From Psammoneis japonica (Eukaryota): a DNA stretch of 64,000 nucleotides. Under the pieces are notes generated by a model. That model did no database searches, was not told where the DNA came from, and worked only from the letters and a program-made list of their open reading frames with translations. Location of the stretch: positions 67,719 to 131,718 of the forward strand of contig QPGO01000040.1 of the NCBI GenBank assembly GCA_008632985.1, read 5' to 3'. The number at the start of each line of letters is the position of its first letter. Within the stretch, counting starts at the first letter, position 1. A program made the translations under genes and the position numbers. Positions 1,660-52,206 of this stretch are shown piece after piece.

Positions 1660-2778
1660 TCACGTCCAATGTTGATATGGAGGAATTGCCGGGAGCTTAT
1701 CCACTGTTAGATACCCAGCAGGGGCATCAATCACTTGCAGGATGCGGCTCATTACGGCGGTATTAGTCATTTGCACCGATGGCGTTTTCGGCATGGTAAA
1801 CTTGACCCCCGAGGGCTCTCCTTGAAATTCCCACGAGGTTTGATCTATATCGTCGGGGCCATAACAATTCCCAATCAAATCAAATTCAATTGTAATGCCC
1901 TCATTTGTTTTCGTCGTGGCTTTGGCCTTCATTCCTGTGCATTCTCCCACGGGTATTTCTCGGTCAAGGGAGGCTGCCCAAACGGGAACGTTACAAAAGG
2001 TTGGTTCTCGCTTTTCGGTCGTCTCCTTGAGCGTCAGTCCCAAGGGAGAAAGAAGCAAACCAATTATGCTTCCACCACAAAATTCGGCGCTTGAATTATC
2101 CGCAATTTCCGTTTGAAACTGCTCTGGCGTGAGTCCCGCCCCGTGTGCTTCTGCCAAGACTTTACCATAGTCGTTCAAATTGTACTGCACAAAGCCATTG
2201 ATTGAGTCGATACGGTGCATCATTGAACTCAATGTCAAAATCATTTGACAACACGCAACGTCTTCATAACCACTACCCGTCAGAGTAACGCCATGTTGTC
2301 GAAACAGGGCATCAACTTGTCTTGTCAGAGTAGGAGAAGACTTGCTCGAGTCGTATAATTCTTCTGCAATGGTAATGACGTTCACGTTACACTCGGCACA
2401 AACGACAAGCGACGGTTGCAAGTCTCGAAGAGTCGATCGGGTAAACAAGATGCAAATGTCTGGACGAGTCGCTTCAAGAGTCGATCGGGCGTCGGATTCA
2501 TCCACAATTACGACACCATTCGTGCCACCGAGTTTGTTGCCCCACGGAGCCAAATCCACCAATGTGTAGTCCTTGCCAATATCATGGTGCGAAATGACAG
2601 CCACAATATCAACGTGACGCTCGTGCAAGTACTTGGCCATGAGCTTGTTTTGATTGCCAAATCCCCACAAGGCAACCTTGACGTCGCTCAGATTTCTTTC
2701 GACGATTGAGCTAGTACTTGTAGGAGGCTCTGTCACAGCAGCAGACGCTGATGGTGTATTCGTCGATTGCTTCATCAT
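1660..2778 (-). CDS. NAD(P)-dependent dehydrogenase, DapB-N / 2,4-diaminopentanoate dehydrogenase (Ord)-like family, intronless
   Basis: 372-aa ORF with Rossmann-like KVALWGFGNQ, PDICILFTRST, NVNVITIAEEL, GVTLTGSGYED and C-terminal VIDAPAGY.TVDKLP, as in the bacterial Ord/DapB-like family. Confidence 0.8.
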   Translation of the reverse strand: MMKQSTNTPSASAAVTEPPTSTSSIVERNLSDVKVALWGFGNQNKLMAKYLHERHVDIVAVISHHDIGKDYTLVDLAPWGNKLGGTNGVVIVDESDARSTLEATRPDICILFTRSTLRDLQPSLVVCAECNVNVITIAEELYDSSKSSPTLTRQVDALFRQHGVTLTGSGYEDVACCQMILTLSSMMHRIDSINGFVQYNLNDYGKVLAEAHGAGLTPEQFQTEIADNSSAEFCGGSIIGLLLSPLGLTLKETTEKREPTFCNVPVWAASLDREIPVGECTGMKAKATTKTNEGITIEFDLIGNCYGPDDIDQTSWEFQGEPSGVKFTMPKTPSVQMTNTAVMSRILQVIDAPAGYLTVDKLPAIPPYQHWT

Positions 2779-3010
2779 TAGTCCTCTTCCCGCAAAATCA
2801 AAAGCAGTATCTTGTTTGAGAAACGATCACTACGAGCGACGTTATAGAGGATAGATGTTGTTGATCTTTCGTCCTGTGGACCTTGAGAAACAAAAAAGAA
2901 ATCGTTCGAGACGACTACGTCTGGAGAAGCGCTATTGTAAAGCCGCAGGAGCATCCACTCGCCACAAGAGATGATTCAGGCAATAAGCGAAACAGGCATG
3001 GGTGTCATGG

Positions 3011-4040
3011 CGTGAACCTCCAAAGATTTGTGTGAGGAATGCGTGATCCCGCATCCGAAAGTTAAAGTTATGCGAGTTCACATTTGAAGTTGCGTGGAAA
3101 CTGTACTATGAGCTACGGACCAGCTCAGGCGCCCTTCCTCGAACGTCGAACTCCACTCCCGGCTTAGGAGGTCTGTAGCAGTTGGTCGAACTCACAACGA
3201 GATCCGGTTTCAGCAGAGTTTAGCACTGCGTTCTCTCCTCTCTGCTCTCTAGAGAGAGCAGACAACAGGGCCTCACTAGCCAGCAGCCTCTCTCTAGCTA
3301 GCTAGCAGATCTGACGCTAATGCGATGATGCTGTCAAACAACAAAACAAACTTGTGCTTGTGTCAATTTCATCATGTTGGTTTTCTTCGTTTGACCCAAC
3401 AAATGTTGGCACATCAAACACCACAGTCACACACACAAAAGCTCAAAACAAGTCAAATGGATTTCCCTTTCAGGAGGGGGGTGATGCATCAAATGGATTT
3501 CTTCCTTGTGGTGGTCCAGCTGGCTGCTGTGATTGTTGAGCTGGAGCAGAGGTGCCACATTTGCGGCTGCTGGGGAGCGAGCCAGCAGTTGCGGCTGCTT
3601 CTGTGGAGCTGGAGCGTTGCCGTCATTTGCTGCTGCTGTGGAGTGGGAGCCAGCACCGCCATTTGCTGCTGCTGTGGAGTGGGAGCTGGTGGTGCCATTT
3701 GCTGCTGTGGTGCAGGAGCTGGTGCCACCATTGGCGGCTGTGTTGTCAGAGGTGGATCCTGCACCAATCCCTTGGGTCGAGTTGTTGCTCCTCTCCTCCT
3801 TGTTGCGGGGTTGGACTTGGAATCATGGGTTTGCCACCTGCAGCAGGGATTGGAATTCTCCCATCATGTCATTGCCACTGTGCCATGATGTTGTTGCTCA
3901 CGTGCTTGACTCAGCATGGATGGAGCCAAAGTCACCAACATCAGACCTTGAGGAGCAGCTGAAGCAGGTGCCAAAACTGGAGCTGTGGCACCAGCGCCTG
4001 AACAGGCATGGGAGCTGGTGCACACAGAGCAGCCAGCGCT
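3011..4040. repeat. Diverged direct duplicate of ~20371-21690 (CTAG-rich repeat plus the 3' end of the ArfGAP-EH gene)
   Basis: Shared anchors: cgtgaacctccaaagat (3011 and 20371), gcccttcctcgaacgt, ctagctagctag, ttttcttcgtttga, gtcaaatggatttcccttt and ttgttgcggggttggacttggaatcat. Confidence 0.9.
3443..4040 (-). pseudogene. Decayed fragment of the ArfGAP-EH gene 3' end (Pro/Gln-rich tail with NPF motifs)
   Basis: Collinear with 21188-21690 and retains the KGNPFD.F-stop end. It has frameshifts and CpG>TpG/CpA changes (gcgggtgccgaaactggagccgg > gcaggtgccaaaactggagctg). Confidence 0.85.
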
Positions 4041-4989
4041 GCCAAAACAAAACCCAAAATCTGTTTTCATTGACCACTCAGTGGTTGATGATTGCAGACT
4101 TTTTTGTGTCCAGCAGCCAGGCAGTCTGGCAGTCCAGCAGTTGTGGTGTTGGGCAGTCAGCCCAAATTTGAGAGTGTGCCCCTCTGACTTTGGAACAGCA
4201 TGTGTGATTTGGCACAAATGAGTTGTTTGGATTCACAAAATGACAATTGAGAACATTGGAGGTCATGGGGACATCCCAAAGAATCAACAAATTCCCTGCG
4301 ACGGGTGCACAGAACTGTCTTTCAGAAGAGCTTGAAAGTGCTGCAAAGTTGGGGTGGGTTGCCAGCGTGGCATGTTGAAAATTGTGTTGGGCTTGGCATG
4401 AAGAGAACTCATTGTGAATTGGCACACAAAACAGTCAAAATGGAAAAAAACTCATCGTGCAATCAGCGAGTCTGTGTGGTGCACCATTTTGGTGGTGAAC
4501 TGGACAAAAAAGAGTGTCAGCATGAGCTGTCAAATGTGATGGTCATCTGCATCACCGGCGTGGTGGCCATGCCAACCTGCCACTGCAGTGCCAGCCCCAG
4601 TGGCAGAGCCCTGTGTGCGCGCAGGCAGTGCAGCATGCAGTGGCACACACCCTCACCCACAAAGAGAAAGACAAGTGGTCAATGCTCCCTGCAGGCCTGG
4701 TTTAGGTGCTGCTGTGCTTCCACCCCACAACTCTGGCAAACAAGCCAATCCACACCCTCAGCACACTCAAAGCGCAGCAGGGGCTCACAGCAATCAGCCT
4801 GAGCTGGCATCACCATCATGTGATGCTGCACCAAAGCCTCACAAAGCCATTTTGCCAATGCTTGATTTAAACACGGGTCTCGTCATTGCCAACAACTCCA
4901 AAGCCTGTGCAGAGAGTGATTCAGATGCTTGTCAACAGAGTCAAAAAGTTCTGCTTGATCTTTTGCCAAACAATGTTCACTGGACCATG

Positions 4990-5350
4990 AGTGGATCACC
5001 TCAACCTCTGCTTCCATGCACTGTGCTTTAATGACGAGTGTGCAAACAAAGACAGAATGAAGTGAGAAAAGTGAAAATTGCAAGATGAGATTTTTGTCAA
5101 TCATTTTGGGTTTCCCTGAATGAGTTCTCAATGGCCTAAAGCTTCTGCGCTCTGTGCATGAAAGGCCTTTCAGAAAATGTGGTCATGACAACAGATTGTC
5201 CGGGTGCAATTGCCATTGATGCATGAGGTGTCAACATTGTTGAGTGATTGCATTTGCAACTTTTGCATCCAACCAACTCTGTGTGATTGATTTGTCCTTT
5301 GTGTGAACCCATGATTGATGTGCAATTGAAGTGCAATGATGTTTGGGACA
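4990..5350 (-). mobile_element. Fragment homologous to the 5' leader/LTR region of the Gypsy element (related to ~11810-12180)
   Basis: Shares gtgaaaattgcaa, ttttgggtttccctgaa, aaagcttctgc and tgat.tgtcctttgtg..aaccca..attgatgtg with 11858-12155. Confidence 0.65.
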
Positions 5351-5689
5351 TGTGGACATGGGCTGCATGCATGATGCACACCATGGGGCAATGCATGTTG
5401 CACTCACCTCCCCAGTTGCACATTGGAGTCATTCATCAAATGGCACCATGCAGCAAATGTTGATGGCATCAACAACATCATCACATTTGATCTGCGCTGT
5501 GCCATTGGTGTGCGCCATTGTCATTGTGTGTGCTCCAGCATGAGGCTGTTCCATCTTTTGGGAGTCTTTCTTGAGCAGTGTCTTTTCTCCTGCTCTGCAT
5601 TGTGTGTGTGTGTGGAGTGCATCAAGTGTTCTCTCAAATGTGGTTTTCATTTGTGATTTCTTGTTTTTGTTCCTGGGCTGACTTTTTGT

Positions 5690-7990
5690 CTGTTGCCGCT
5701 TGCATCTGAAGGCTTTGTCAGTTTGGACGTTGCTCTTTTGGATGGGATGACTCTCGATGGATCCAAAGTAAAAGGGGACCCTTCCCTGCGCAGCAGCACA
5801 AGCACTCTCAACAACATTGAACAACACAAACCGTGTCAGCGAGCCTGGACCGTGTGGAGAAAATTCTGTTCAAGTCTGTGTCATCTGAGATCACACCGAC
5901 TAAAGGAACCTCTCGGTGATTGGCGGTTTCCACCATCACAAATGAGAATGCAATCTACCGCATGCTTCTCTCCATCTGAAGACAGCTTGTGTGCATGTGC
6001 TTTGGAAGGTCATGACATCTTCCAAGCAAATGGAGCAATCACTGACTCGACAGTGGAAATTGAGACAGTGCCAACCCCCTCCAAAGATTCCTGTCCGGCA
6101 GAAGTGTCCACAGTCAAGGATGGCCGATGGCAATTCGAGATTCCGCATGCTTCATCAACCGCCTCTCTTTCTCCGGCTGCACCAGACTCTTTTCTCGAGA
6201 GTCTTCAACGATTGGATGTTTGGGAACCAACGCTGTTCAAAGAATTGGCACTGCACGTTTCTTCTTGAGCATTGGCTCAACATTTTCTTTTGTCTGCTCT
6301 CACCGCAGGCAGTGACCGGTCAGTGCAGGAGGGAGCTGCCTTTGGATGGACAATCACCACAGACGGCACTCCATTGGTGGATTGCGCAGGACCAGTTTTT
6401 GGAAAGACACCATCTTTGTGCCGAGCAGAGGCCTGTGGCATCCTCTCAATTGCAAGGTTCATTTTTCGACTGTGTGAATGCTGTCGGATTGCAGCTCCTT
6501 TGGATGCGGTGATTCATTGTGACAACAAGGCATTGGTCAACTGTCTCTCCCAGTTGACATCTGCCTCACCTGTGTTTGACCCAGACAATGACTCTCACGC
6601 TTTGCACAATTTTCACATTCGTCGTCAAGGCGCCAACGCCATTGCCCCAGACTGGGACGTGCTGAATGAAATCCTTCACACCCAGCAAACTCTGACTCAG
6701 CTTTTGGATTCAGAGGACCTCATTCCCCCCCAGTGCTCTGGGTGAAAGGACATCAAGACAGGCATTCTCCGGTTCATGCCTTGCCTTTAAATGCTCGAGT
6801 CAACATCCGTGCTGACAGATTGGCAGGCACATGTCAAGGTCACTGTCTGCATGATGTGGAACAAGTGAAACGTCCACCTCATTGCCACTCTCACCTTGAG
6901 ATAGAGGGAGGTGCTGTGACGTCAAGCTGCAAGAAACAGATCAGATGCGCAGCCACTGCTCCTCAACTGATCGAATGCATTGTCGAACGCAACCAATGGA
7001 ACTCTTCAGTGGCAGATCAAGTGGATTGGAACGCCCACGTGGTCCTGGTGAAGCGCTGCTCAAAGAAACACGTCAACACGGTCAAATTGGTGTGTGGCTT
7101 GTCACCTGCAAATAAAATTGCCCACAGATGCAATCCAGGTTGTCCTCACCAGTGCATTGCATGTGATCATCCAATGGAAGACAGGGACCACATTCTCTGA
7201 TGTCCCAACAATGAACAGTGGAGGAGGAAGTTCTTGCAAGGCCTGCAAAGACACTGCGACAAGGTGGGCACAATGCCTGTTCTTTGTGACTTTCTGTTGG
7301 ACATGCCACAGGCTTGGTTCAATGAGGAAATCACGCATCTCGACAATGTGGATTGCAGATGCAAGGAGTTGTGGAAAGCTCAGTCTGATGTTGGATGGTG
7401 GATGGTGACAGATCTTCAATGGCAGACATTCATTCACGTGGAACCTCCTGCAATCCGGTCATCTTTGCAACTCAGGCATCTTGCGTCAACATCAAGAGGA
7501 AAACAAACAACCACCGGGTTGGACTGTCCAGACAGGATCCCACACATGGAGAAGCTGGTGGGAGCTGTGGGAGGAGCATGACCAGCCAGTCCACAGACAC
7601 GATGTGGAGTCTCAAAAGTCATCACAACGAAGAAAGGTTGAGGCCAAATTGACGGCAATTTACAACAAACATCACAAATGCTTGGCTGAAGACAGAGGTG
7701 TGTTGTTAGATTCAGTCAAGGAACACCGTTCATTCACTGTGACGAGGATTCAAAATTGGATCTCTGTGGTCCGCCCAAGACTCAAAGAAAGCCTGAAAGA
7801 AGCCAAACGCCTGGCTAAAAGAGGCGCTCGCACCATCTTCAGCTGTTTCTGTCGGGCGCCCTCATCCGGGGGCACCGTTTCTGGCCAATTGCACAAAATT
7901 TCTGCTGCATCCTCCGCAGGGTGCACTGGAAGTGTGGGTCAGCCGGCGCCGGTGTTGCTGGGCAAAGGTGCAACAGCACTCAAAATTGGA
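5690..7990 (+). mobile_element. Degenerate non-LTR retrotransposon (diatom RNase H-containing LINE), 3' portion
   Basis: RNase H motifs GSDRSV..GAAFGW, CRAEACGILS (consensus YRAEAYG), IHCDNKALV and WVKGHQD..LPLNARVNIRADRLA; a zinc knuckle CIACDHPMEDRDHIL*C; C-terminal IQNW..AKRGARTI. Contains stops and frameshifts. Confidence 0.8.
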
Positions 7991-10168
7991 GTTTTTTTTT
8001 TGAAGACCAGTTGTCCTGGTGCAGCTTGCACAGCAGCATGACACATTGAACATGCAGCAAAGGCCGCTGCTGACAGCACACCAGAGAGAGGATTGCCTGC
8101 ATCCAGGGGTGCATTTTGTGGGTTGAATGTGCGCAGCACATTGCCTGGTGTTTGGTGCAAGCATTCAACAACTGTGCTCACTTGTGGAGTTGATGCAGCT
8201 GTGGTCATGCCACAGTCATCTTGAGCCACATCTCTCAATTGGTGTCCAATGAACTCACTTCCATGGTCACATGTGATTCATGATGGCCAAGGACATCCAC
8301 TCAACCATGTTTGTTTCAACAGCCCAGCTGCAGTTTTGTGGGTTCCTCATTTAGAATTTTTGCAACTTCAAACCACCCTGCTGGGTCAATCATTGTTGAA
8401 CATTTGAAGACACGGGGTTTCTTCTTTCCCTTGCACAATGCATTTTGTTTGGTCCAGCAGGATCCACACAAAGTTGCTCTCCCCGCGGCACTGATTCTGC
8501 GCACTTGGGGGGCAAATGTCCACCATTTTTTGTGTTTTTTTTTTGAATTTCTGGCACGTCTCACATTTTGACACGCATTTTTGCATGTCTTCACGCAGGG
8601 TGGATCACCACAGGTGTTGTGAGATTGTTTTTTCTTCTGTTCTGTTTGTGCCTGGGTGAAGAAGATGTGCATGGCACCAGCCCATCACCGCTTTCTGCAA
8701 CATCTTTGGAATGATGATTTCATCCTTGTGACATGTGAAATGTCTCATTTGACAAATTGGAGAGAATGTCTTTGTCCCATTTCTGTTCAATGTCAAGAGC
8801 TTTGCAGTTCAATGGAAAGACATTGTCGCGGGATGTTGGCAGGACCTTTTTGACTGGTTGCTCAGTTCTGAGATGTTCCACAGGTTTCATTTTTTCATGG
8901 CAAGGCAAATTGTTTTGGGGCTGCTTTCTTCTGTTGTTGGATGCAGCACATGACACTGTCCATTGTAAAATTTTTGTGTGTGTGAGAGATCGTTGTGATC
9001 CAAGTGTGTGTTTGTCTGTTGGCCAAACAGCATGTTCTGCAACTCTTTTGGTGTTTCCATGACAGACAGCAGCTCTTTTTCTGCTGCAGCTGTGGAAAAA
9101 AACAGGTTGGTTTTGCTGTGCAACAACCACCCCCAATTGAGAATTGCTTGCATCAGCACACATCTCAAAGGGTGTGTTGAAACTTGGGTGTGACAATGGT
9201 GTGTCTTTTGAAATGATGGGCTCCACATTTTTCAAGGCTTTTTGTTCCATTTTGGCCCGTTGCCACTTCACCTGTGTTGGGATGAGTTTGGCCAAAGGAG
9301 CCAGAATGTGAGATTGTCAAGGCCGCATGTCTTGACAACAGTTGATCACACCAACAAGGCACCACAATTCCTTTTGCCAGTTTTTGGAGTGGTGATCACA
9401 TGAATTGCTTCAACTTTTTTTGGAATTGGGGTGATGCCATTGTGGGTGATGTGAAAGCCCAGACAGCCTGCTTTGAGTTTCTTCTTGGCATTGACCTTCA
9501 GCCCAGTTTGTTCAAGGTGCATGAAACCATTTCAAGCTTTTTGAGGTGGTCTCAGAAATCACCTTTGTGAGGCACAGTGTGTCATCAGTGTGAGTTCTGA
9601 CAAACTCCAGACACCTGCCATGAGTTCACTCATGTGCTCTTGGAAAACATCTGGAGCTCCACAGATGCCCCCTGGCAGTCTGCAGTGCTCATGTTTGCCC
9701 AAGAAAGTGCACAAGCAATGTGCACGCTGCATCAGTTTGACATGACAGTGTCCCATGTTCAAATCAAGGGAGGCAGCAAACACGGAACCTTCAAGTTTCT
9801 GTCACATGTCCTGAACGTCAGGCAAAGGAATTGGAGTGCACATTGACCTCTTGTTCAGCTCACGAAAGTCAGAAAGAAACCAAACTTGACCATTTTTCTT
9901 TGGTTGAATGAAGGTCACAGTGCCCATTCAGAACAATTTGTTTTTCTTGAGACCTTCAACTTGCACAGTCTTTCAGCTTCCTTTCAAGTGGCCGGTCACC
10001 TCCAAGGCTTGTGGCATGGGGAATGGTTTGGCGCAATGTGGACTCATGCCTGGTTTCAACTTTAAATCCACTGGCATCCTGGTCCACTTGCCCAGAGAAC
10101 CATTGAAAAGGTTTTCAAATCATTTTGAGAGGAAGTTCAGCTGCTTCTGCTCTTCTGGGTTTAGATGA

Positions 10169-10206
<38 letters not shown>

Positions 10207-12200
10207 CACATTGTTGAGGTTGGCACAACATGACAAGCCAACCTGAGTCAAGGAGCCAATTGACAACCCTGTCATTGAATCCAATCACAGCATGAGATTC
10301 CTCAAAGTGGTTGGCAATCAACTTGAAAACATCGGCATTGAAGAGTGCACCAACATTCTTCACAGGCACAGTTGCGTCCTCTCATTTAATTTCTTTGTTT
10401 GAAAAGTCCAATGTGGTCCTGAGACTTGACATCAAGTCACATCCCATGATCACATCATGACAACTCAAAGAAGAAGGGGTGTTGTCAACATGTCCCCTTG
10501 TTTTGATCATCTCATGTTTGTCAAATTCCAGCAAGGAGAACCAAATTTTACACCGATTCTTTGGTTCTGGGTCATCACGTCAATTTGCACAAAATTGTGG
10601 TTGACAATGTTCTGCTGTCAAGGAGAACATGAAGAGGCTTGTTTGAGCCACTGGACTTGCATGAATTGTTCTGGCCCTTTTTCTAGGCTTCCCAACATCC
10701 AGCAGAGTCACTGAGCATCAGTTTTTTAAATTGACAGTTCTCCTTGCTGAGGGTGTCAGAGTTGCAATCCTTTCTCTTCTTGTGCTTTGCATCTTTGTTT
10801 GAAGAACTTGCCTTGGGTGTTTTTTGATCCACCTGGATAATTGCAGCATTCAACTCTTCCTTGCGAGTGGCGTTTTCATTGTTGCAACATGACCACATGC
10901 TGTTGCCATTTGAATGGCACCACTTCAGATCATGACCACCATTTCTGTGGCACTCTTTGGCCAGCCTTTTTGAAACCCAGCACTTGCCCGCATTGTGGGT
11001 GGTCTTTTCGCAATGGCTGCACCACTTGTCAGACTCAGAAGCTTTGGCACCAGATTGGTGACCATTTTTGGAACCATGGTGCTTGCTTGGATCCATTCTT
11101 GGCTTTCAATCCAGGCTTGTTGCTGGCATCAGCTTGGACATGAGCAGAGTTGCGCGTGTCTTCTGCAACCTGCTTTGGATGCCCCCAAAACTCAGCCAAC
11201 TCATTCAAGGTGTGCTTCAAAATTTTGGGCCCTTTCTTGGTCAGCTGACACTGCCATTTGCAAGGTGCAAGGTTGCAGACAACATTCTTGAGATCATCAC
11301 CCTTGACCTTCTGATCTTCCTTGAAAGGAGGACAACACTTGAGGTCTTTGTTGACTTCTTGAACCCAGGTGGCAATTTCTTGGATCTTCATGGTCTCTGG
11401 CTTCTTGAGATCATGCCACAAATGGCATTTCTGAATTTGGACTGCATTCTTTGGAAAGACATGACTTGTGCAAGGTGTTGCAGGCATTTTTTGAAAGCTC
11501 CTTTGGCTGGCTCATCTTCAAGATGCAGCGCCATTCTCAACTTCTTGTTTCTTGATGTTTTGACCCACTGGGAGTTGTTTGCAGCTTGTCAGGAATTTGA
11601 GGCACTTCAAAATGCCTTGTTGCTTGCAGTGCTTGACATTGATTGTGCAGGTGTGGCTGTCCTTCTTTTCTGGGTGAAAGCACTGCTCCTGGCTTGGTTT
11701 GAGTTTCTTTGGTTTGGAGGTTGATTCCAACAGCGCTGGAGCTGTTTTCTCTTGAGGTGAAAGCTTTGTTTCTGTCTTGGCACCTTCTGTGGTGTGCATG
11801 CACAATGCACCATGCTCAAAGAACAAGCACAGACAAAGGCAGATTGAAGTGCAAAAAGTGAAAATTGCAACATTGGATTTCAGTCAATTGTTTTGGGTTT
11901 CCCTGAACAAGCTCTCAATGGTCCAAAGCTTCTGCACCTGCTCAAGCAAAAATTGATGCACTTCAATCATGGGCGAGTTTGTGCATTTGCAAAATTGTCT
12001 CATTTTCCATTGGTGGTCATTGGCACATTCATCACCTGGTGATTTTGCTGTGGAGATTGCATGTGGAATTCTGCGGGCCCAATGTCACACGGATTCCCAC
12101 CTGCATCTGAAATGCATCTTGATCTGTCCTTTGTGCAAACCCACAATTGATGTGTGGTTGAAGCACAACAACACATTCATGACACATGCAGACACACACA
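7990..12200 (-). mobile_element. Degenerate Ty3/Gypsy LTR retrotransposon (gag, protease, RT, RNase H, integrase)
   Basis: RT: AASLDLNMGHCHVKL and GKHEHCRLP..APDVFQEHMSELM. RNase H: FEMCADASNSQLGVV. Integrase: WCHAHLLHPGTNRTEEKTI, CETCQK, TMIDPAGWFE, ECLHQTPGNVLRTF and APGQLVF. Gag: LKKPETMKI..CCPPF and CSHCEKTTHNAGKCW. Domain order RT-RH-IN. Confidence 0.9.
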
Positions 12201-12349
12201 CACACACACACACACAGTGCACATGACAGTGCATGTTGCATCCACATGATGGCATTGAATTGATTCACCAGTTTCTGAGTCATGCCCACAAATGGTGTGA
12301 TTGTGTTGTTGATCCCACAATTTCTGCAATCAAGGCCAAACAGAGCTGC

Positions 12350-14530
12350 CAATCACAGCGGCCCAATCCACTCTGGAGTTGTCAGAGCCAGAGCTTTGAA
12401 CCATCTTTAAATGCTCTGGCTGCACCTTGCTCCAAAGGGAGGAGAAGCAATGGTTGAAAAGGTGCCACACCATCTAATCTGCTCTTGAGAGTGGAAAACC
12501 AGCACCAGTGCACTGTGGTGAAGCTTGTTGGCAGCATGAACCAGTTCCTCATGGAGCCAAGATTCTGGTGCTGCCAACAGCACAAGTTGCGCAAAGGAGG
12601 AGACATGTTGCAAGCCTTGAAGGAATGTGTGTCACCAAACTTCATTGCAAGAAGGACACCACAGAATGTGATTCCTGTCTTCCATCAGATGTTGACAATG
12701 GATGCAGCAGCTGGGTCAGATGGGGTTGCACTGGTCAACTGTCTTGATGGCAGACAGAAAATCTTGAGCCAACTTGGCTGCATTGACTTTCCTGCAAATG
12801 TTGCAAGACATGAGTTTTGAATGGACAGGCCAGTCAATGGAGTGGAGCACCTTGTCAGCCCATCCACATTTCTCTTTCATGTGCTGGATGTGGGTTGGAC
12901 TTGATGCCTTGAAGTGTGACAACAGCAGAACAATGTGGCACCCTGGGAGCAACTGAAGTGCTGCCAGGAAAATTCCTTTGATGTTGACCTGCAATTGACC
13001 CACACAGACACTCATCTTTGCCAGAAGAGACAATGACTCACAAGGGGCTCAATCATCTTGGTGTCCTTTGATCTGCTGCACACTGACTTGAGTGTTGAGT
13101 GCATGGCGGCTCTGCGAACGGGGATTTGGACAGGCACACAACTGAAAATTTTCCAGTCAGCCAACATCATGTCAGCAACATGATGTCTGTGGCAGCAGTC
13201 AAGAAAAGACAAGCTCCAGAAGAGCTTGCTTCATCTGAGATGGGAAATGGTGCCTGCAGATTTGCAATGTCTCAGATGATGGCAGAATTGCTGCAGTGTG
13301 GGTCCAAACCCAGCCAGAGGAAAAACAGTCTGACAACATTCCACAACCAAGAGCGTGGGTTGAACAAAGAAGAGTGTGCCTCATGCTTCTGTGTGGTGCA
13401 AAGAACGGTGAAACCCAAATGCAGGACCGGTGCAATTGACTGAAATCAAGTGATTGATGGCAAGCATCTGTCCAAATTCAGCATCAAAGTCAATGACCGA
13501 ACCATCGCTTGCCACTGCAGCTCAAGAGAACTTGCTGTCAGAGCAGAGTGAGCCAGCATGTGTGCCACCAACATGGGTGTGGGTCCACTGCTGCCCCTGG
13601 CAATGATTTTTCTGTCCACAGGGCTGCGTTTGATCTTGGCAACAAACTCACATGGCATGGACCAAAAATGGAAACAGCCACACACGTGTGTGCTGTCAAA
13701 CAACAAGTCCAGAATTCCAGAGGTTTTGGTTTTGAGCAGAGTCATGCAGAAAATGTCCTGTGACCACACAACAATGCTTGTGAAAGCTCATTGGCAAGCT
13801 GGGGCTCTGCTCATTTGCGTTGTGCACCAGACCACAGCACTCATGTCCTGGCATTTCTGACATGCTGTTGCTGGCACATTTTGCCACTGGGTGAGCAACA
13901 ATGTGTCATTGCTTCAAAGCCACGGGAAGGCTGTTTTGAGGGTTGCCAAACTCTCTTTGTGTTTTTCTCATCATTGAGTTCACAGCCCACACAAAAATGG
14001 TGCCAAACAAGGAATCAATGTCATGACCCTGCTTTGAACAGATTAAATCCAAGTGGCTGCAAGTTGTTGGAGATCTTCAAAGCACCCCTTCAGTGCATTC
14101 CTTGGATGGGTGCTGACTGTGCAGCAAACTGGGTTGCTCACTCATCCTCTTTGATGCTGCTCTTTTGTCCACACCACATTCCTCATGCTCTGCAGGTGGT
14201 TCCAGACCTTGCCAGTCATCCAAACACGTGTTTTGTCATTGACATCTTTGCAAAAGTGTGCCCTCCTTCTCTTGCTCTCATGGCTGCACTGCTGTCAACT
14301 GGCCTTTTGTGCAAACCTCATCTCTGTCAGGCAAATGTTGTGTGGCAGCAAAGACATGTTCCAGCTCCAGGTGGGACCTCACACTGCTGAACTGTGACAT
14401 CAACAGTTTTTGGATGGTGCCACATGTCACGCATGCAGATGGCTGCATGTGACATTCTAAGAAAATGTTTCATGTTCCCTGTTTTGTGAAGCCCCAAAGG
14501 CTTTCTGTTTTCAATTTTTGACATTTGCGA
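12350..14530 (-). mobile_element. Second degenerate RNase H-containing LINE relic (same type as 5690-7990)
   Basis: Minus strand gives AVASDGSV (~13490-13520), CTGPAFG and MLADWKIF. GWADKVLHSIDWPVHSKLM..KVNAAKLAQDFL matches QWNSSVADQVDWNAHVVLV..HVNTVKLVCGL of the first LINE. Confidence 0.7.
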
Positions 14531-15638
14531 GAATTAAAACACCCTCTGGGGGGGGAGGGGCACATTCTTCAATGTTTGCAGAACACACCCAGGCAAACTG
14601 TCAATGATGCACTTCAAGTGTGAAGGAGGAGATGCGTTCATGAAATTGGCTCTATTTCTGTTGGCGATCATTTGTTTGCTGCACTTTCATTGCTTGGCGA
14701 AGTTGCTGCGGAGCTTGCACATGGAATCCCACGGGCCAAATGCCACATGGAGTCCCACCTGCTGGGACTGGAACCTGTCCAATGGCAATCTTTTGTGCTG
14801 CATGGTCATTGCAAAAAAACACGTAGAAACTGTGCAGACCAGTGCCGCCAAAAAAATGCAATTTGTTTGTCTGTCCGCCCTTGGTGAATTTTAATTCTGC
14901 AAAAAATGGACTTGACTGCCAACTGATCAGGTGCATTTCTGCAAAAGTTTTGAGAAGACAACCATTTTGGTGCAAAAACATGCAGCAGATTTTGTGGACG
15001 TCCTTGAGCAATTTGTGGGTTTTGTGTCACGGGTCATTTTCGAAAGATTGTTGTTGAGACGAGAGAGGACGGCTCTGCAAATTTTGTGCACAAGGGGATG
15101 CAGCCATGGCTCTGCTGCAAAAAGCCTGTGCACAGCTCTGCAAGCAAATGGGGTGCATGTTGGGCTGGTTTGTGTCCATGGCAAGAACTTGAGAAATGCC
15201 AGCTGCCTTGGCTGCACTCAGCCCAAGCTCACATGTGTCCCCCCATGAAAAGCTCCGAGTGCAGCTCTTCCCATCACACTGGCTGGATGTCTGCTCCAGA
15301 TCAACACCTCAGACAGAATGCAAGCAAAGAGGATTTGCTGATGAGCAGTGATGGGAGTTCAGCCAATGGTCTTTGCCAAACCGCTGTTGACCAAATCACA
15401 AGCTGCCCAGAGGACTGAGTCTGCTGAGTGCAACAAAGCGAGATTTTCCCGCACACTTACACTGGAGACTGGTGCAAGTTTTAGGGAAACAAGCACTGCT
15501 GAAGCAATCGAGCTTGAAATTCGGGGGACGTGGCGCAAAAGAATTTCAATCAGAATTCCGATGGACAGAATGACAGACACACACATGGAAGATTGGGTCA
15601 GTGGACAGACGACCCACGACTCACTCTACTACGTCCCG

Positions 15639-15975
15639 TATGAAAGGGGACGTAGCCGGTGGCTCTGCTACCAGAAGCTCTCATGTAGCTATCAAGGCAA
15701 AGGGGACGCATGTAAATCTGCATCGCAGGGGTGGCAAGAATTCGAGAAACGTTGGTAACCTTACACTCTATGGAAAGGGGACGTAGCCAGTGGCTCTACT
15801 ATCAGAAACTCGCATGTAGCTATCAAGGCAAAGGGGACGTACGTAAACCTGTATCGCAGGGGTGGCAAGAGTTCGAGAAACGCTCATACACTCTACCGGT
15901 ATGGAAGGGGACGTAGCCAGTGGCTCTACTACCAGAAGCTCGCATGTATCCCAGTAGGCAAGGGGACGCATGTGA
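15639..15975. repeat. Tandem repeat, ~130 bp period, about 2.5 copies
   Basis: aaggggacgtagcc.gtggctct.cta.cagaa recurs at ~15644, ~15775 and ~15905. Confidence 0.9.
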
Positions 15976-20469: not shown

Positions 20470-21080
20470 ATACGAGGCATGAGCTACGAACGAGCTCATG
20501 CGCCCTTCCTCGAACGTGGAACTCAAAAGCGAGTTCAGGTTAGGTCTACAGTGGAGTTTTTCTCCTCTCTACCTACTCTAGTAGAGTCAGTAGACAATAG
20601 GGCCCTACTAGCCAGTAGCCTCACTCTAGCTAGCTAGTAGATCTAAAACTAATCTGATTACGAGGAGCTACAAACGAGCTCATGCGACCTTCCTCAAACG
20701 TCGAACTCATAACGAGCTCCGGTTGCAACACAGTTTACTGTGCTCTCCCCTCTCTACTCTAGAGTTGAAAATAGGGCCCTGCTCTAGTAGCCAGTAGTCT
20801 TGCTAGCTAGTACAGTAGATCTAAAACTAATCTGATTATGAGGAGCTACGAGCGAGCTCATGCGACCTTCCTCGAACGACGAACTCATGAGTTCCGGTTG
20901 CTCATGAGTTCCGGTTACTATCTACTCTACTCTCTACGGTATCTACTAGCTAGAGCTGGTAGTTTTAGTACACTACAGTAGAGTTTTATTGTGTTCCTAC
21001 CCTCTCCACTCTCTCTAGAGTAGACAATAGGGCCCTACTCTAGCCAGAGTCATCGCTAGCTAGTAGAACTGATACTAATC
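20470..21080. repeat. Three tandem ~180-bp CTAG/CTAC-rich units; one homologous unit at ~3110-3320
   Basis: gagctac.a.cgagctcatgcg.ccttcctc.aacg occurs at 20481, 20665 and 20843. Each unit ends with a variant of aatagggccct..ctagctagtag..ctaatc. Confidence 0.9.
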
Positions 21081-21187
21081 CGATGACGCTAACAAACAAT
21101 AAAATAACTCGTTTGTATCAATTTCATTATATTCCTTTTCTTCGTTTGATTCAATAAACATTAACACATCAAACACAGTCACACAGT

Positions 21188-24100
21188 TCAAAACATGTCA
21201 AATGGATTTCCCTTTGGCGACAGGGGCGCCGCATCAAAAGGATTTCCTCCTTGTGGTCCGGACGGCTGTTGCGGTTGAGCTGGAGCAGGCGCCATTTGCG
21301 GTTGTTGGGGAGCCAATTGCTGCTGCTGTTGGGGAGCCGGTGCCATTTGCGGTTGGGGAGCAGGAGCCGACGCCATTTGCGGCTGCGTTACCAGAGGCGG
21401 AGCCGGTGCTAATCCCATGGGTTGAACGGTTGCTCCTCCTCCTTGTTGCGGGGTTGGACTTGGAATCATAGACATGCCGCCACCCGCAGCGGGACTCGGA
21501 ATTCCCATCATGTTGTTGTTGCCATTGTTGTTGTTCATGCTCGACGGGGCGGGACTTGCGGGTGCCGTTTGACTCGGCATGGTCGGAGCCGGAGCCGCCG
21601 ACAGAGCCGGAGTCACAGGAGCGGGTGCCGAAACTGGAGCCGGTGGTACAGGCGCTGGTGGAGCAACCGGTTCTGGAGGAGCAGGTGCAGCCACGGGTTC
21701 CGGAGCTGGAGAAGGAGCAGATGGTACAGGAGAGGGAGCAACCGGTACTGGAGAGGGAGCCGACACGGGCGCGGGTCCACTGTTGCCATTCGCAACGACT
21801 TTTCCATCCACAGGATTGTGTTTAATCTTGACAATAAACTCATGTACTTGTTTCAATTGCGCATCCGACAAGTACAGTATTTCCTCCTTGATTTGTTTTT
21901 GTACTTGAGATTCTTGCAATTCCTGTAAATGCGCATCGTCCGTTTGCTTTTCTTTCCCCGTGGGCAAGACAATGGTATAAAAGGGTTCCAAATCATCATC
22001 GTAATGGACCTTGACAATTTTGGCAACACAGACATTCTTGGAACTGTCTGTATACGTGACGGCTTGGCCCTTTGTATATTTGGACGATGCACCCTTGGCC
22101 GAGGACGATGCCGATGTCGTTGTCGTGGCTGCTGCTGCTGCTGCCGGCGTACTACTACTCGTCGCTGGCTGTTCGACAAGTGGCGTAGACGCCAAAGCCA
22201 AATGATTAAAGGCATCAAAGGCATTCTTGCGAGGACTTGGTGGTGGAGCCGGGTCGGTAGCAGTAGGAGGCGGCTGCTGCTGCTGCTCTTGCGCCGGTTG
22301 GGGTGGCTGCGGAGGCGGCGGCTGCTGCTGTAGGTCCGGTTGAGCTTGGGATGACTGCTGCTGCTGTAGTGAGGGCGGTTGAACTTGTTGCTGTACCTGG
22401 GGCTGTACTTGGGGCGGTTGCTGTTGCTGCTGTACCTGAGGAGGCTGCTGTTTAACAGGCTGCATTGGAGCAACTTGATTCGGAGCCGTTCCTCCTCCTC
22501 CCATGCCTTGTTGTTGCATGTTGTTATTTCCAAAGCTTTGCTGTGGTTGCAAAGCAGCTGGTGGTCCCCCGCTTGCTTTGAATGCCACCAACGACGCTGG
22601 TAGTTGCGGCGGCAATTGCAATTGTTTTTGTCCAACACAATGAATCAAGTGTAATGCCAAACAAAATTCCATCTTGTCAAGTTGATTATCCACGGGTTTA
22701 TCCACCATGGTCCAAATATCTCTCAAGATGGTTTGATCCAATCCGTATTGTCCAAATAATTGTACCGCCTGTGGACCCAAGACGTATTCTGTATTGGGTG
22801 GGAATTTGGATTCGTACATGCTGTACTCTTGTGGCGTCATGCTGTACGGATCGGACGGTTGTTGCTGTTGCGGAGTAGGCTGTTGTTGCTGCTGTGGAGC
22901 CGGTGGCGGTTGAGCGGTAAATCCCTGCTGCGGTTGCTGCTGCGAAGTAGGTTGCTGTTGACCACCAAAGTTGGCAAAGCCGCCTTGTTGCTGAGGCTGC
23001 TGTTGTACAGGTTGCGTCGGCTGCGCCTGAGGCTGCTGCTGCTGTCCACCAAAGTTGGCAAAGCCGCCTTGTTGCTGCTGAGCTTGGGGCGGTGGCTGTA
23101 CTTGAGCCGGCGGCTGTTGAGGCGGCTGCTGCTGACCGCCAAAATTGGCAAAGCCTTGTTGTTGTGGCTGCTGTGGTACAGGCTGCTGCTGCTGCTGGAC
23201 GGGTTGTGGCTGTTGAACAGGCGGTTGCTGCTGCTGCTGCTGCTGCTGTCCACCAAAATTAGCAAAGCCTTGTTGTTGCGGAGGCTGCTGCTGTTGCGGC
23301 GGAGCTTGCTGAGGCTGTGTCTGTCCGGCTCCACCACCAAAGTTTGCAAAGCCTTGCTGCTGTTGAGCAGGCTGAACTGCTGCTTGTTGCCCTCCAAAGT
23401 TTGCAAAGCCTTGTTGTTGCTGCTGCTGCTGCTGTTGAGGTGGAGGCTGCTGCTGTACAGGCTGAGCTCCAAAGTTTGCAAATCCCTGTTGCTGTTGCTG
23501 TTGCTGTTGAACAGGCTGTTGCTGAGGCGGAGCTGGAGCCGGAGCAGGAAAGGCCGCGTGAAAGGAATTATTCTGCTGTTGATGATTCGCCGATTGGGAC
23601 GATCCGCCAAAGTTATCCCAACCACCGTTATTATTGGTAGTACTAGCAGCATTACTGGCTGGAGCAGGCGCAGGAGACGCATCAAATCCGAGCAAATCAA
23701 CTGCCGGAGCTGCTTTTTCCTTTTTGGGAGGCACCTTGACTCGCGTCGGCTGTGGCTCACTCGTAGCAGACGTACTATTAGCATCACCACTATACCACGC
23801 CTTGTCATGATATTTCCTTCGAATCCATATACGTAGAGCTTGTAAATCAAAATTATTTTCCGGAGCTCGTAGTCGTTCTCGCATGGGATCATATCGTGCC
23901 AGATACACAGCATTGACTTTATCGTTGCTGGTATTCTTCATCAACATGACTTCGTCCATACTAAACGTTGACGCACCCATACCCTTGACGCGATGATTGA
24001 GTTCTCGCAAGACGCCACTGCATGCCATGCAAACATACGTCCCGACCGTCAAATTGACGCACTGCGGAAGTTTAGTGCTGCAATCGGCACACTTTTTGTT

Positions 24101-24205
24101 GCACGGTAAACGTGATTGAGCACGAAGAATTTCTTCTGGTGATTCCGGGGTCTTGCGACGGCGGGGTTTGTTGGAAGAAGAACTAGTGCCTGGACGGGGA
24201 AGCAT
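21188..24205 (-). CDS. ArfGAP (AGFG-like) protein with GFANFG repeats, an EH domain, an SH3/Tudor-like module and C-terminal NPF motifs (~1005 aa)
   Basis: ArfGAP zinc finger [18 protein letters not shown]-like [59 protein letters not shown] and KGNPFDMF. First plausible ATG (MLPRPG) is at 24205. Confidence 0.9.
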
Positions 24206-24479
24206 GATGTGGTGTTGGTGGTAGATACTGTGGTAGTAACGAGAGTGATGTAAACAAACAACAACAAACGACGTGTTGATAATTGTTGTTGTTGTTGCTC
24301 TCAACGCTCGCACCACCACACGTGACCTCTTCTTGAAAAATGACCGCGATCTTTCCAATGCGGGCGGACGGAAGGAAGGACGGACGGGTCAATGCGACCT
24401 GAATCGTTTATTCGTGAATGAATACATAATGCAATTGCTTACTTAGTGTAACCTGTACATCGGCCAATGACGCGTTGTT

Positions 24480-25750
24480 GTGTTTTTTGTGAGCGCATCA
24501 TGTGTGGTCCTCCAGCTCATGTTTTGTGGTGCTTTTTGCCAAAACCATCCCAACATGCCCACATTGAGAGATGTGCCACGACATTGCTGGCAAAAACTTC
24601 CAGCAATGACGACCCATTCTTGTGTGACCAGCACATTGCTGCCTCGTCGGTTCTTGTTGCTGACAAAGTTGTTTCTCATTTGGGTGCTCTCACAACTTCT
24701 GAGTTGCTCATCAGCTCACGGTCCACAAAAAAATCACCAACTTTGTCTCCTTGCTTTTGCTGCTGCCACGAGTGTTGTGTTGCCCTCAACATGAGGGCCG
24801 GCCTGCTTTTTGCCTTGTGTGCTTGTTGCTTGTTGATGCGGCAAAGCTCTGCTGTGTGCTGGTGCACCTCATGAGCTGAGGCAGCAACAGCAACCAACAG
24901 CAGCATTGGACAACAAACTCCCATTGTTTGGGGGATTAAAGTCACCATCATGATGCAGCAAATGTGGTGCCAGTCATTCTGGTCTTTTGAGCTGCTCTTC
25001 AAAATCTCTTGACAAAAACCAACAGTTTGGTGTGATGCACCTCAGCAGTCGCTCACCCAGAAGAGCTTCACAGCCCTTGACTTTGGTGTGAATGGGAAAA
25101 GGAGGAGGCACACCAGCAGCTGCAAAAAAGCTGCAAAAAAATGACAGAAATGCACAAACCATTTTTCGGTGTGTTTGAGATTTTTTGACGCCAGTCAACA
25201 CAACAGACCTGGTCCAGTGAATGATGGGATGATGTGCATGACTGAACTGATGAAGATTCTCATCTGCCAAACTTTTGCGTTGCTCTCATTTTCCTTTGTG
25301 CCCTTCCTCCACTCAAGACTGTTTTGCTGCAAAAGCTGCATCAAACTCTCGCTTTTGCTGTGCTCAAAGTTAGCATCATGGCACAGCGGTTGCCAGCACC
25401 TCCAGTCATGAGCCACACTCCCAAAACTCTCAAGTGCCTGAAGTTTGGCCTGGTGCACCTTGGCACCCCCCAACCACAACCACTCAAAGCCAGCGTTGAC
25501 CTCATGAATGTTTTGACCTGATTTCCACAGAAAAAAAAAAATAGCTGCAAGGAGAGAAAGCATGCAACAACAACAAAATGCCATTGGAAACGGGGGAAAT
25601 CACCAGCCATGTTTGTTCTGCCACAGCAGTGAACACAATGACATTGTTGCAGCTCTCTTGGTGTTGCACCTCTCTTGGTGGTGTTGCAGCGCCGATGTGA
25701 TGGTGGGTGCGGTTCGTGATGGCAAAAACATTCTCGAATTTTGCGCCAGC
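24480..25750. other. TpA/CpG-depleted hypermutated island 2 (unidentified repeat relic)
   Basis: Abrupt compositional switch like domain 1. The few surviving TpA are attaaa, gttagc and aatagc. No recognisable protein motif. Confidence 0.85.
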
Positions 25751-38000: not shown

Positions 38001-39241
38001 ATGCATTTGACATGGCTGCATTTACTCACGGTGGTGTGTCCATTGCGAACAAAGCACACCAACGGAAATTCACAATCGCTGTCGCTATCGCAGTCCCCTT
38101 CGCACAAGCCAAGAATTGAATTGGCTGGGTTGGCTACATTAATCAACTCATTCACTTGGTCGCCTTGAGCTGAAGTTGGATGAGGAGTGGGGTTGGAAGA
38201 AGGTGAAGGAGTTGGTGATGGCGTAGCGTCTTCATCCGGACTTATGCAGTAGTCCCAATCGATGATACCATTGGCACTCCCACAGCCAGGCACCTGTTTG
38301 GATTCATAATTACAAATAATACCGGTTAGAGATAGCAGCATCATGCATTTGAAATGGCTACATTTACTCACGGTGGTGTGTCCATTGCGAACAAAGCACA
38401 CCAGTGGACCTGCACAGTCGCTGTCACTGTCGCAGTCCCCTTCGCACAAGCCTAGAATAGAATTGGCGGGGTTGGCTACATTAATCAACTCATTCACTTG
38501 GTCGCCTCGAGCTGACGTTGGAGAAGGAGTGGGGTTGGTAGTAGGAATACGGGTCGGGTTTTGCGTTGGGTTCGGCGTCGACAAAGGGGTGGGATTCGGA
38601 GTCGCTGGAATGTCATCACCCCAAACACCAAACTCTTGCAAAGAGAATCCGTTCTGAGTGTTGGGAGTTATTCCATACATTCGAATATACTTTCCTTGCA
38701 CATCTGATGGGAGATCAATAATTTCCGTGCCGCCTTGACCATTGCTCTCTGAAAACACAGTTTGCCATTGGTTCTTGTCGTCAGACACGTCGATGGTGTA
38801 TTCTTTGGCGGATGCAGAATCCCAAACAAGTGCAACTTTGGTAAGCTTGTACGCCTTGGCAAATTCCAGATAAATATACTCGTCGTCGCTGTGTTCGCTT
38901 GCCCACCGAGTGCTAAAGTCGTGATCAAATGCCTTTTTAGGTGCGTATTGTTCATCTGCGTGATAGACGGAAGACGTTCCTGTATGAATAAGCTGCAACG
39001 TTGTTGACAGTCTCCTTCGAAGTGAAAGTAGATCCTCTTCGATAATACGGTCAGTCGGTATTTCTTCGACAGGTCCTTCGATCTTTACTTCTTTTTCTTC
39101 GTGAAGAACATGCTCAACGAGATTTTCGTCCATTCTTATTAGGTTCTTGAACGGCGAGTTGAGTCGATGTTGTCGTCTTGCAACAGTCCCGGTGGCGCTT
39201 AGCGCAGCCAACAGAACTGCTGCGTTCCTGTGGAACCTCAT
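32008..39241 (-). CDS. Very large multi-exon frustulin-like cell-wall protein: signal peptide, F5/8C (discoidin/CBM32-like) domain, ~17 acidic Cys-rich (CxGDCD) domains, Pro/Thr/Ser linkers, C-terminal Trp-rich domain
   Basis: MRFHRNAAVLLAALSATG; KAFDHDFSTRWASE..YIYLEF..GKYIRMYG..SLQEFGVWG; repeated C[EQ]GDCD.D.DC...C..R.G...VPGC..DYC; PETSSPT repeats; LKLYWEQGYGWQD..WC. GT-AG introns fall at matching positions within the repeats. Confidence 0.85.
34250..35950. repeat. Intragenic tandem repeat, 621-bp period, about 3 copies including an intron
   Basis: Near-identical ORF starts at 34590, 35211 and 35832 (spacing 621), with near-identical intron sequences. Confidence 0.95.
36530..38540. repeat. 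Intragenic tandem repeat, 342-bp period, 6 copies, each an ACR exon plus a ~78-nt intron
   Basis: cggtggtgtgtccattgcgaacaaagc occurs at 36661, 37003, 37345, 37687, 38029 and 38371. Confidence 0.95.
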
Positions 39242-45104: not shown

Positions 45105-45109
45105 GGTGA

Positions 45110-52120: not shown

Positions 52121-52206
52121 CTCGATTGCTCTTCAAGAAAATATGGATGCATGATGCCGGCGACCGCCACCATGGAGCCAATCTCTCCCCGATGAATCCT
52201 TCAATC

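Follow-up and report, generated by a model that had tools for sequence, protein, structure and literature searches.

The window analysed here is a 64,000-nucleotide (64-kb) stretch of the genome of the diatom Psammoneis japonica (assembly GCA_008632985.1, contig QPGO01000040.1, positions 67,719 to 131,718). Its genes are long, nearly intron-free open reading frames (ORFs) and include those for an HSF-type factor, an ArfGAP-EH protein, a ferric reductase, a PPR protein, a GLTP protein and pyruvate carboxylase. The window also holds four blocks in which the dinucleotide TpA is nearly eliminated, and these blocks are the subject of this work; the genes between them have a normal TpA composition. 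The original prediction, made from the letters of the sequence, had described ~12 kb of such DNA as transposon relics and had proposed that a separate, locally targeted A:T>G:C mutator acts on silenced repeats, in addition to the decay of CpG.

Counting of the dinucleotides in the first block (3190–15600) gave 39 TA against 836 expected from the base composition, an observed/expected ratio (O/E) of 0.05; the hand count behind the original prediction had been about 30. CpG is depleted as well (184 of 715 expected, 0.26), CA (1341 against 715, 1.88) and TG (1449 against 836, 1.73) are inflated as predicted, and the GC content is 0.480. The same signature had been proposed for three further stretches with normal neighbouring genes. 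It is present in each of them, with 3 TA observed and 84 expected at 24500–25750, 13 and 466 at 45100–52100, and 5 and 38 at 63400–64000. The TA O/E of the whole window is 0.43. In 500-bp bins it is 0.00–0.11 within the blocks and 0.26–1.41 elsewhere, and the drop in CpG (O/E 0.14–0.30 in the blocks) and the rise in CA and TG coincide exactly with the drop in TpA. The depletion of TpA in the four blocks is confirmed as real and lies far beyond chance.

The block edges were refined from the positions of single TA and CG dinucleotides, with a resolution of 50–250 bp, and fall at ~3180–3230 and 15490–15620, at 24457–25541, at 44914–52141, and from 63461 to the window end. The predicted coordinates were right to ~100–250 bases. 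Block 1 (3200–15560, ~12.3 kb) is bounded on the left by the last TA outside the context YTAR, at 3176, and on the right by the first RTAY, at 15639 (R, purine; Y, pyrimidine). Block 2 (24460–25540, ~1.1 kb) is flanked by the ArfGAP-EH ORF on one side and the ferric-reductase ORFs on the other and has 2 TA in ~1.08 kb. Block 3 (44920–52140, ~7.2 kb) has a TA O/E of 0.03 and a CG O/E of 0.14 and ends at the start of the PPR ORF. Block 4 (63460–64000) is TpA-depleted and continues past the end of the window. We noted that block 3 reaches into the first ~66 codons of the ORF at 44052–45119(−) (44920–45119) and that its other edge is at most ~30 bases from the PPR ORF start (52114–52141). Thus, the blocks abut gene starts very closely.

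We compared the 21.2 kb of blocks with the 42.8 kb of normal window sequence. At the dinucleotide densities of the rest of the window, 827 TA and 904 CG are missing from the blocks (a total loss of 1731), and 682 CA and 880 TG are gained (a total gain of 1562). The GC content is the same in the blocks and outside (0.481 and 0.483). Deamination of 5-methylcytosine would explain the loss of CpG and about half of the gain in CA and TG. It cannot remove TpA, however, and the 827 missing TA stand beside the 904 missing CG with a different dependence on context.

This dependence is strict for TpA. RTAY is absent from the blocks (0 found, ~252 expected) and occurs 508 times in the normal sequence, a density ratio of 0. 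RTAR is found 6 times in the blocks and 517 times outside (density ratio 0.02), YTAY 11 and 450 times (0.05), and YTAR 42 and 314 times (0.27). With slightly narrower block limits, the survivors in the same order are 0, 6, 10 and 34, and the YTAR excess has a Fisher p of 3e-14. The tetranucleotides ATAT, ATAC, GTAT and GTAC are all at zero, and TTAA is the best survivor (0.44). Sites that are favourable on both strands are gone, those favourable on one strand are 20- to 50-fold down, and those favourable on neither are ~4-fold down. The RTA/TAY context of the original prediction therefore holds. For CpG, RCGY is the least depleted context (0.36), followed by RCGR (0.23), YCGR (0.22) and YCGY (0.19). 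Since the CpG loss lacks the context rule of TA, two separate processes have acted at the same address. A single process for both dinucleotides, acting at the YpR step in an alternating purine-pyrimidine context, was considered and rejected, as an RYRY context has no corresponding effect on the loss of CpG. The plus-strand counts of RCA and TGY gave a mild TGY excess only and no clear polarity.

The direction of change could be read from two host-gene sequences that are present both inside and outside the blocks. The first consists of the ArfGAP-EH gene's 3′ end and the sequence downstream of it, present as two paralogous copies. The depleted copy (3306–3910(+)) is 79% identical to a copy that retains its TA (21058–21545(+)), which overlaps the 3′ end of the ORF at 21188–24388(−) and was used for polarising; where the normal copy has TA, the depleted copy has CA, TG or CG. 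The second is the 5′ part of an FG-GAP gene. The normal copy (62030–62640(−)) contains a 79-nt GT..AG intron at 62324–62246, and removal of this intron (62246–62324(−)) leaves the frame open. The depleted copy, inverted and intron-less (63460–63995(+)), lies 1.2 kb away and is without exactly this stretch, as seen around 63753–63800(+). It has the look of a processed copy, or retro-copy, in head-to-head orientation to the gene from which it derives.

In all, 28 TA of the normal copies could be aligned well. The depleted copies have TA at 4 of them, CA at 8, TG at 10, CG at 1 and other dinucleotides at 5. In the reverse direction, only one aligned CA or TG of the normal copies is TA in the depleted copy. 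Transitions from the normal to the depleted copy affect 9 of 27 T and 12 of 27 A within TA, against 19 of 194 other T and 9 of 163 other A. Pooled, this is 21 of 54 positions in TA context and 28 of 357 other A/T positions, so the excess of TA-context transitions on which the original prediction depended is present. The copies at 21058–21545 and 62030–62640 keep normal TA, and only the copies within blocks are mutated. The duplicated segment at 3108–3910, which matches 20479–21545, contains the left edge of block 1 (~3180–3230) internally and not at the segment end. A TA-rich block of short repeats (20480–21060, O/E 1.41) with many CTAG lies downstream of the ArfGAP-EH gene. A second copy of these repeats sits at the left edge of block 1 (3108–3305) and has retained its CTAG, which is the resistant YTAR context.

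Block 3 contains an LTR-like direct repeat (long terminal repeat, LTR) at 46100–47250(+) and a second repeat at 50510–51640(+) with 67% identity to it. The two differ by 40 adjacent double differences. Thirteen of these are CA in one repeat and TG in the other, and the next commonest class has 3. Such doubles are expected from the independent resolution of one ancestral TA or CG. With the tyrosine test and the intact relatives described below, these comparisons form four independent lines of evidence that the loss of TpA is mutational. It occurred in place and on both strands, in favour of a regional process on chromosomal DNA.

The paralogues also bear on a second explanation, error-prone patch repair. 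Here, T:G mismatches arising from 5-methylcytosine deamination would be handled by non-canonical mismatch repair with a DNA polymerase eta (Pol eta)-like enzyme that makes WA>WG errors (W, A or T). It would account for the loss of TpA and CpG in exactly the same blocks, and TA is a WA motif. However, AA is also a WA motif and is not depleted (74.6 per kb in the blocks and 78.2 per kb outside), and A outside TA changed at 9 of 163 positions as opposed to 12 of 27 within TA. The dependence on a 3′ pyrimidine and a 5′ purine and the total loss of RTAY are also unlike the Pol eta pattern. We consider this explanation improbable; of the three mechanisms, all speculative, put forward in the original prediction (an adenine deaminase, Pol eta-like repair and a miscoding modified A or T), it is the worst fit.

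The core of block 1 allowed an independent test at the protein level. A Pfam search of the 144 stop-to-stop ORFs of the blocks matched RT_RNaseH_2/RT_RNaseH at 8723–9316(−) and gave, besides, two weak unrelated matches; no recognisable protein was found in the rest of the blocks by this search. A word-indexed protein search with the RNase H relic found no longer protein to compare it with. An exhaustive HMMER search with the relic ORF returned 392 relatives. One of these, a 1004-residue polyprotein (P0003), is colinear through residues 128–906 with 10170–8002(−) (E 1e-86). This region (8002–10170(−)) is a pol relic of a gypsy-order LTR retroelement, with reverse transcriptase (RT), RNase H and integrase in order in one polyprotein. 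Its displaced C-terminal end is found at 5432–5668(−) (P0003 residues 924–1004, E 0.002), and the intervening stretch at ~5.7–8.0 kb is, by this alignment, a nested insertion of ~2.3 kb that splits the relic. An upstream ORF (10686–11105(−)) carries a CxxC...H...C zinc-knuckle-like motif in its translation and is gag-like by eye, with no Pfam match. The block 1 core is thus assigned, by sequence similarity, to a gypsy-order LTR retroelement relic. The predicted transposon relics are borne out only for ~5.4–11.2 kb; the rest of the blocks gave no Pfam match, and parts of it are multi-copy in a public sequencing run, X1, described below.

The relic is inactive, with 12 stops in the 687 codons aligned to P0003. 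We examined 19 columns in which at least five homologues agree on tyrosine. The relic has tyrosine in none of them; it has histidine in 7, cysteine in 6, phenylalanine in 3 and other residues in 3. By comparison, 239 of 438 conserved columns of other residues are kept (Fisher p 5e-7). With P0003 alone as the reference, 34 tyrosines are aligned, and the relic has tyrosine at 0, histidine at 7 and cysteine at 7. The RT motif MGYYHIEL of P0003 reads MGHCHVKL in the relic, and the YxDD box reads HTDD. Tyrosine to histidine or cysteine corresponds to TAY>CAY and TAY>TGY, exactly the proposed changes. The sense-strand T>C (7 histidines) is about as common as the sense-strand A>G (6 cysteines), which indicates that both strands were hit, as do the CA (8) and TG (10) outcomes in the paralogues. 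At these codons, histidine is preceded by a purine in 5 of 7 cases and cysteine by a pyrimidine in 4 of 6, in agreement with the context rule, though the numbers are small. Conserved arginine is kept in 5 of 26 columns, a loss that CpG decay predicts. The few stops are explained by the fact that TAA and TAG cannot exist in such DNA, so that these blocks yield long false ORFs. Overall, histidine (37 against 12) and cysteine (32 against 11) are about three times as frequent in the relic as in the homologue.

These results argue against editing of the retroelement RNA by an ADAR-like enzyme before reverse transcription, in which case the copies would have arrived already mutated. A>G with a 5′ U preference is ADAR-like, and at least one mutated host-gene copy is intron-less. 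RNA-strand editing, however, gives only tyrosine to cysteine, and the histidine changes are as common. The depletion edge lies within a duplicated segment, and the two direct repeats diverged by CA/TG alternatives after their duplication. The 3′ neighbour preferred here is Y and not G, with TAG and TAA surviving best and TAT and TAC gone. ADARs are known only from metazoans and prefer a 3′ G. The edge inside the segment, the hits on both strands and the mutation of host-derived sequence only in the block together make editing before integration very improbable.

Intact relatives of the retroelement were also available for comparison. All 78 metagenome loci (78 of 78 kept) have a TpA O/E between 0.52 and 1.18, with a median of 0.76 and none below 0.3. 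The search patterns for these loci favour intact elements; the set therefore shows that working relatives are TpA-normal, and not that depleted relics are absent elsewhere. One metagenome contig with a gypsy relative (L069) has, at 2001–3500, just beyond the element match, 1.5 kb with a TpA O/E of 0.16–0.26 and CA and TG at 1.4–1.8. RTAY makes up 1 of the 23 TA remaining in this region, whereas elsewhere on the contig it accounts for 25 of 149. Possibly, the process has acted here too, less strongly and in a different organism.

A second data set was found in X1 (its kind guessed as DNA), the one public run found with this DNA; it contains 67% of the sampled words of the stretch. Two runs of the same sample (X2 and X3) contain next to none of these words, and no RNA run with the stretch is listed. 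The X1 contigs, built from 31-mers, have a single-copy k-mer depth of ~54–67 and reach 315 kb, and we interpreted the comparison only where long contig cover exists. There were 6 differences from the window over 12226–14378, 4 over 2000–3590 and 0 over 8546–9033. Over 15 kb there are 84 such places, of which 14 are A>G, 16 T>C, 18 C>T, 19 G>A and 17 transversions. Among the 40 of these 84 that are listed, 17 are CpG against TpG or CpA, 4 are TpA against TpG (3166, 5957, 7236 and 9922), and one is an adjacent TG against CA double (12261–12262). These few differences belong to the two kinds that loss of CpG and of TpA would leave; the TpA/TpG places are too few to yield a rate. A CAG/CTG run (10162–10213, poly-Gln in the relic frame) and a GT/CA microsatellite (12181–12225) inside block 1 explain part of the very high summed contig depth in X1.

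Such contigs need accurate reads, so an accurate-read data set has the same TpA-free sequence. This argues against an assembly or base-calling artefact on modified DNA, to which we give hardly any weight. In its favour are the probable methylation of the blocks, judged by the CpG decay, and the lack of a recorded platform for both the assembly and X1. Nevertheless, the X1 contigs (~55–67×, up to 315 kb) match the blocks within ~0.3%, and the outcomes keep to a tetranucleotide rule, with CA and TG both arising as independent mutations would give them. Another explanation is an inherited composition, with the elements coming from, or having evolved as, a naturally TpA-free lineage. The depleted state of many related X1 contigs would agree with it. 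A working polyprotein, however, cannot lack tyrosine, and none of the 19 conserved tyrosines is left in the relic; histidine or cysteine stands in 13 of these columns, the YxDD box included. The 78 intact relatives are not TpA-poor, and the host-gene fragments are depleted in the blocks and normal in their other copies. An inherited composition is, like the artefact, extremely unlikely. Both had been named in the original prediction as ways in which it might fail. Its central claim, of a local A:T>G:C process separate from CpG decay, is upheld by the paralogue, tyrosine and context evidence.

We put the probability at roughly 80% that a DNA-level process in this diatom converts TpA to CpA or TpG in discrete blocks of dead retroelements, retro-copies and duplicated gene fragments. 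In such a process, T>C or A>G transitions would occur at TpA on either strand, only inside discrete chromatin blocks. Their rate would be highest at 5′-RTAY-3′, lowest at YTAR and in between at RTAR and YTAY, and the blocks have been driven almost to saturation. In the same blocks, CpG is lost independently to TpG and CpA, as 5-methylcytosine deamination would give. The two losses cancel in GC content and jointly pile up CA and TG. The outcome is a permanent destruction of coding capacity, with tyrosine becoming histidine or cysteine, isoleucine becoming methionine or threonine, and arginine being lost. The sequence comparisons demonstrate in which direction TpA changed, that the change depends on the flanking bases, that it took place in situ and on both strands, and that it is independent of the decay of CpG. 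The process may serve as genome defence.

Several points weigh against this reading. The evidence consists of end-states within 64 kb, with no mutation seen as it arose. Only 28 TA sites could be polarised at the DNA level, a small sample, and the copies taken as normal are related to the depleted ones as paralogues rather than as ancestors. Many X1 contigs are 90–95% like the block (1386 of 2362), and only 3 of the 40 listed differences (84 in total) are TA where the window has TG. Because related X1 copies share the depleted state, part of the depletion of any one copy may be inherited from a mutated progenitor, or context may dictate the outcome. X1, for which no platform is recorded, is possibly from the same source as the assembly. 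Targeting by heterochromatin or DNA methylation is a guess, based on the blocks that the TpA and CpG losses share. The best contexts (ATAT, ATAC, GTAT and GTAC) are equally at zero, which is only loosely like the U-A-C context of TadA (see below). Finally, RTA>RCA is the mirror of TAY>TGY, so that deamination of A and oxidation of T leave the same double-strand signature.

For the chemistry, we tentatively favour a deaminase-fold enzyme, ADAT2/TadA-like or of another type, that would turn adenine into hypoxanthine where it stands in a T-A-Y context. Its substrate would be either DNA strand while transiently unpaired; by analogy with the tRNA enzymes this is the leading candidate, though at somewhat less than even odds. 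In tRNA, U33 is the constant 5′ neighbour of the A34 that TadA and ADAT2 are known to edit, and the TadA loop reads U-A-C. The T-A-Y preference seen here matches this context, and the same chemistry is indicated by the only experimental study, on Bigelowiella natans (see below). These tRNA adenosine deaminases and the adenine base editors of the laboratory are near parallels, but to our knowledge no natural role of TadA or ADAT2 enzymes in genome-wide DNA mutation has been established. No deaminase domain was found in a domain search of the window ORFs.

Alternatively, the thymine in R-T-A may be oxidised by a TET/JBP-type enzyme to 5-hydroxymethyluracil (5hmU) or 5-formyluracil, which would mispair with G or be misrepaired to give T>C. 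5-Formyluracil miscodes, and dinoflagellate 5hmU favours TpA. The double-strand signature would be the same, and the sequence alone cannot tell which base was attacked. On the other hand, the literature examined, as far as its text was accessible, gave no sign of such a base in diatoms, and the sole experimental paper argues for adenine deamination, also without proof. We regard oxidation of thymine as unlikely, though far from negligible.

The experimental study is a preprint on mutation-accumulation lines of the chlorarachniophyte B. natans (Mettrop et al., bioRxiv 10.64898/2026.01.13.699255). According to its accessible text, an integrated giant virus and a virophage took 231 of the 302 single-nucleotide mutations of the nuclear genome. 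With few exceptions these were A>G or T>C changes, each of them at a TpA. The events were de novo, and a rate orders of magnitude over background is a mark of this type of hypermutation. The TpA-depleted coding sequences of B. natans are enriched for reverse-transcriptase and DDE domains, and the authors propose, without proof, an ADAT2-type adenine deamination of DNA; an Asn variant among ADAT2/TadA-like proteins is noted there as well.

The diatom blocks resemble this system, as far as it is described there, in three respects. A:T>G:C transitions at TpA give TpG and CpA (19 of 28 polarised TA became CA, TG or CG here). The targets are discrete foreign or repeat regions amid a normal genome (here, four blocks with a retroelement relic and a retro-copy). 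The long-term trace is a depletion of TpA with a gain of CpA and TpG (TA O/E 0.03–0.05 and CA/TG 1.7–1.9 here). They also differ in several ways. A diatom is a stramenopile and B. natans a rhizarian, on a different supergroup branch. The blocks are near saturation (O/E 0.03–0.05), whereas a Rho of 0.45 is given for the B. natans giant-virus region. Only end-states are seen here, and de novo events were observed there. The DNA hit here comprises relics of retroelements, one retro-copy and one fragment of a duplicated gene, and that in B. natans consists of viral inserts. The accessible preprint text (April 2026) does not mention diatoms, flanking context or CpG; the flanking rule (RTAY far ahead of YTAR) and the coincident CpG decay are seen in the diatom blocks. 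The original prediction had called the phenomenon undescribed. In general this does not stand, as one 2026 preprint, the single paper on this signature that a full-text search turned up, describes it in a different lineage. For diatoms it may: no TpA-specific hypermutation was found in literature searches and passages of three Phaeodactylum papers (PMC2806351, PMC4504042 and PMC6604790), with most subscription journals outside the search. Among these, a mutation-accumulation study of Phaeodactylum gives, in the passages covered, CG, CC and TG as mutagenic contexts.

The blocks may also be compared with better-known mutators. Like repeat-induced point mutation (RIP), the process inactivates repeated DNA region by region and irreversibly, through transitions only, and leaves a strong dinucleotide signature; in chemistry and direction the two are opposite. 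RIP, found in Neurospora and other fungi, changes C to T at CpA, creates TpA, mutates both copies of a duplication and lowers GC. Here, in contrast, TpA is destroyed, GC is unchanged and only the in-block copy of a duplication is mutated. ADAR hyper-editing and APOBEC3 in animals are likewise deaminase-based, context-dependent hypermutation of selfish elements. Their substrates are RNA or single-stranded cDNA, so that only one strand bears the signature, whereas both strands and DNA that is not from a retroelement are hit here. The C>T changes of APOBEC at TC or CC are not seen, and the TC and CC densities are unchanged in the blocks.

If the reading is correct, a second major algal lineage has an A:T-directed hypermutation that kills repeats, and a single-species observation becomes a probable widespread defence. 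The diatom blocks add the tetranucleotide rule (RTAY fastest, YTAR slowest), which any candidate enzyme must reproduce in vitro. They also add the saturation of the process and the decay of CpG in the same places, a coincidence that suggests methylated chromatin as the address. As genetic manipulation is possible in some diatom species, knock-outs could be used to look for the enzyme, and base-editing technology would have an interest in any natural DNA adenine editor. TpA-free and tyrosine-free pseudo-ORFs with few stops will mislead the annotation of genes and transposable elements in such genomes. More speculatively, and with a confidence a little below that in the deamination chemistry, diatoms might carry an enzyme system that edits A (or T) at R-T-A-Y in chromosomal DNA and is aimed at heterochromatic repeats and fresh retro-copies until all sites are gone. 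Together with Bigelowiella, this would suggest an old defence that stramenopiles, alveolates and rhizarians share as an assemblage. All cytosine-based mutators of eukaryotes (RIP, AID/APOBEC) work by the opposite chemistry, and the catalyst would be the first natural DNA adenine editor for defence.

Outside the blocks, the pyruvate-carboxylase ORF has 67–72% identity to proteins of Skeletonema, Thalassiosira, Chaetoceros, Cyclotella, Seminavis, Ditylum and other diatoms; none closer was found. This supports a diatom origin of the DNA and speaks against Bigelowiella as its source. A protein atlas gave only carboxylase clusters with bacterial labels, which were uninformative. One bin in the ArfGAP-EH ORF (23001–23500) has a TpA O/E of 0.26, a CpG O/E of 0.37 and a GC content of 0.58. 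The overlapping long ORFs on both strands suggest that it is low-complexity coding sequence rather than a fifth block. Long, near-perfect tandem repeats are present at 34247–36126 and 36498–38545, with offsets of ~621 and 342–348 bases and 87–96% identity. They sit in ORFs with WAP-like and F5/8 type C domains, and their TpA is normal. Thus, tandem repetition inside a gene does not appear to attract the mutator.

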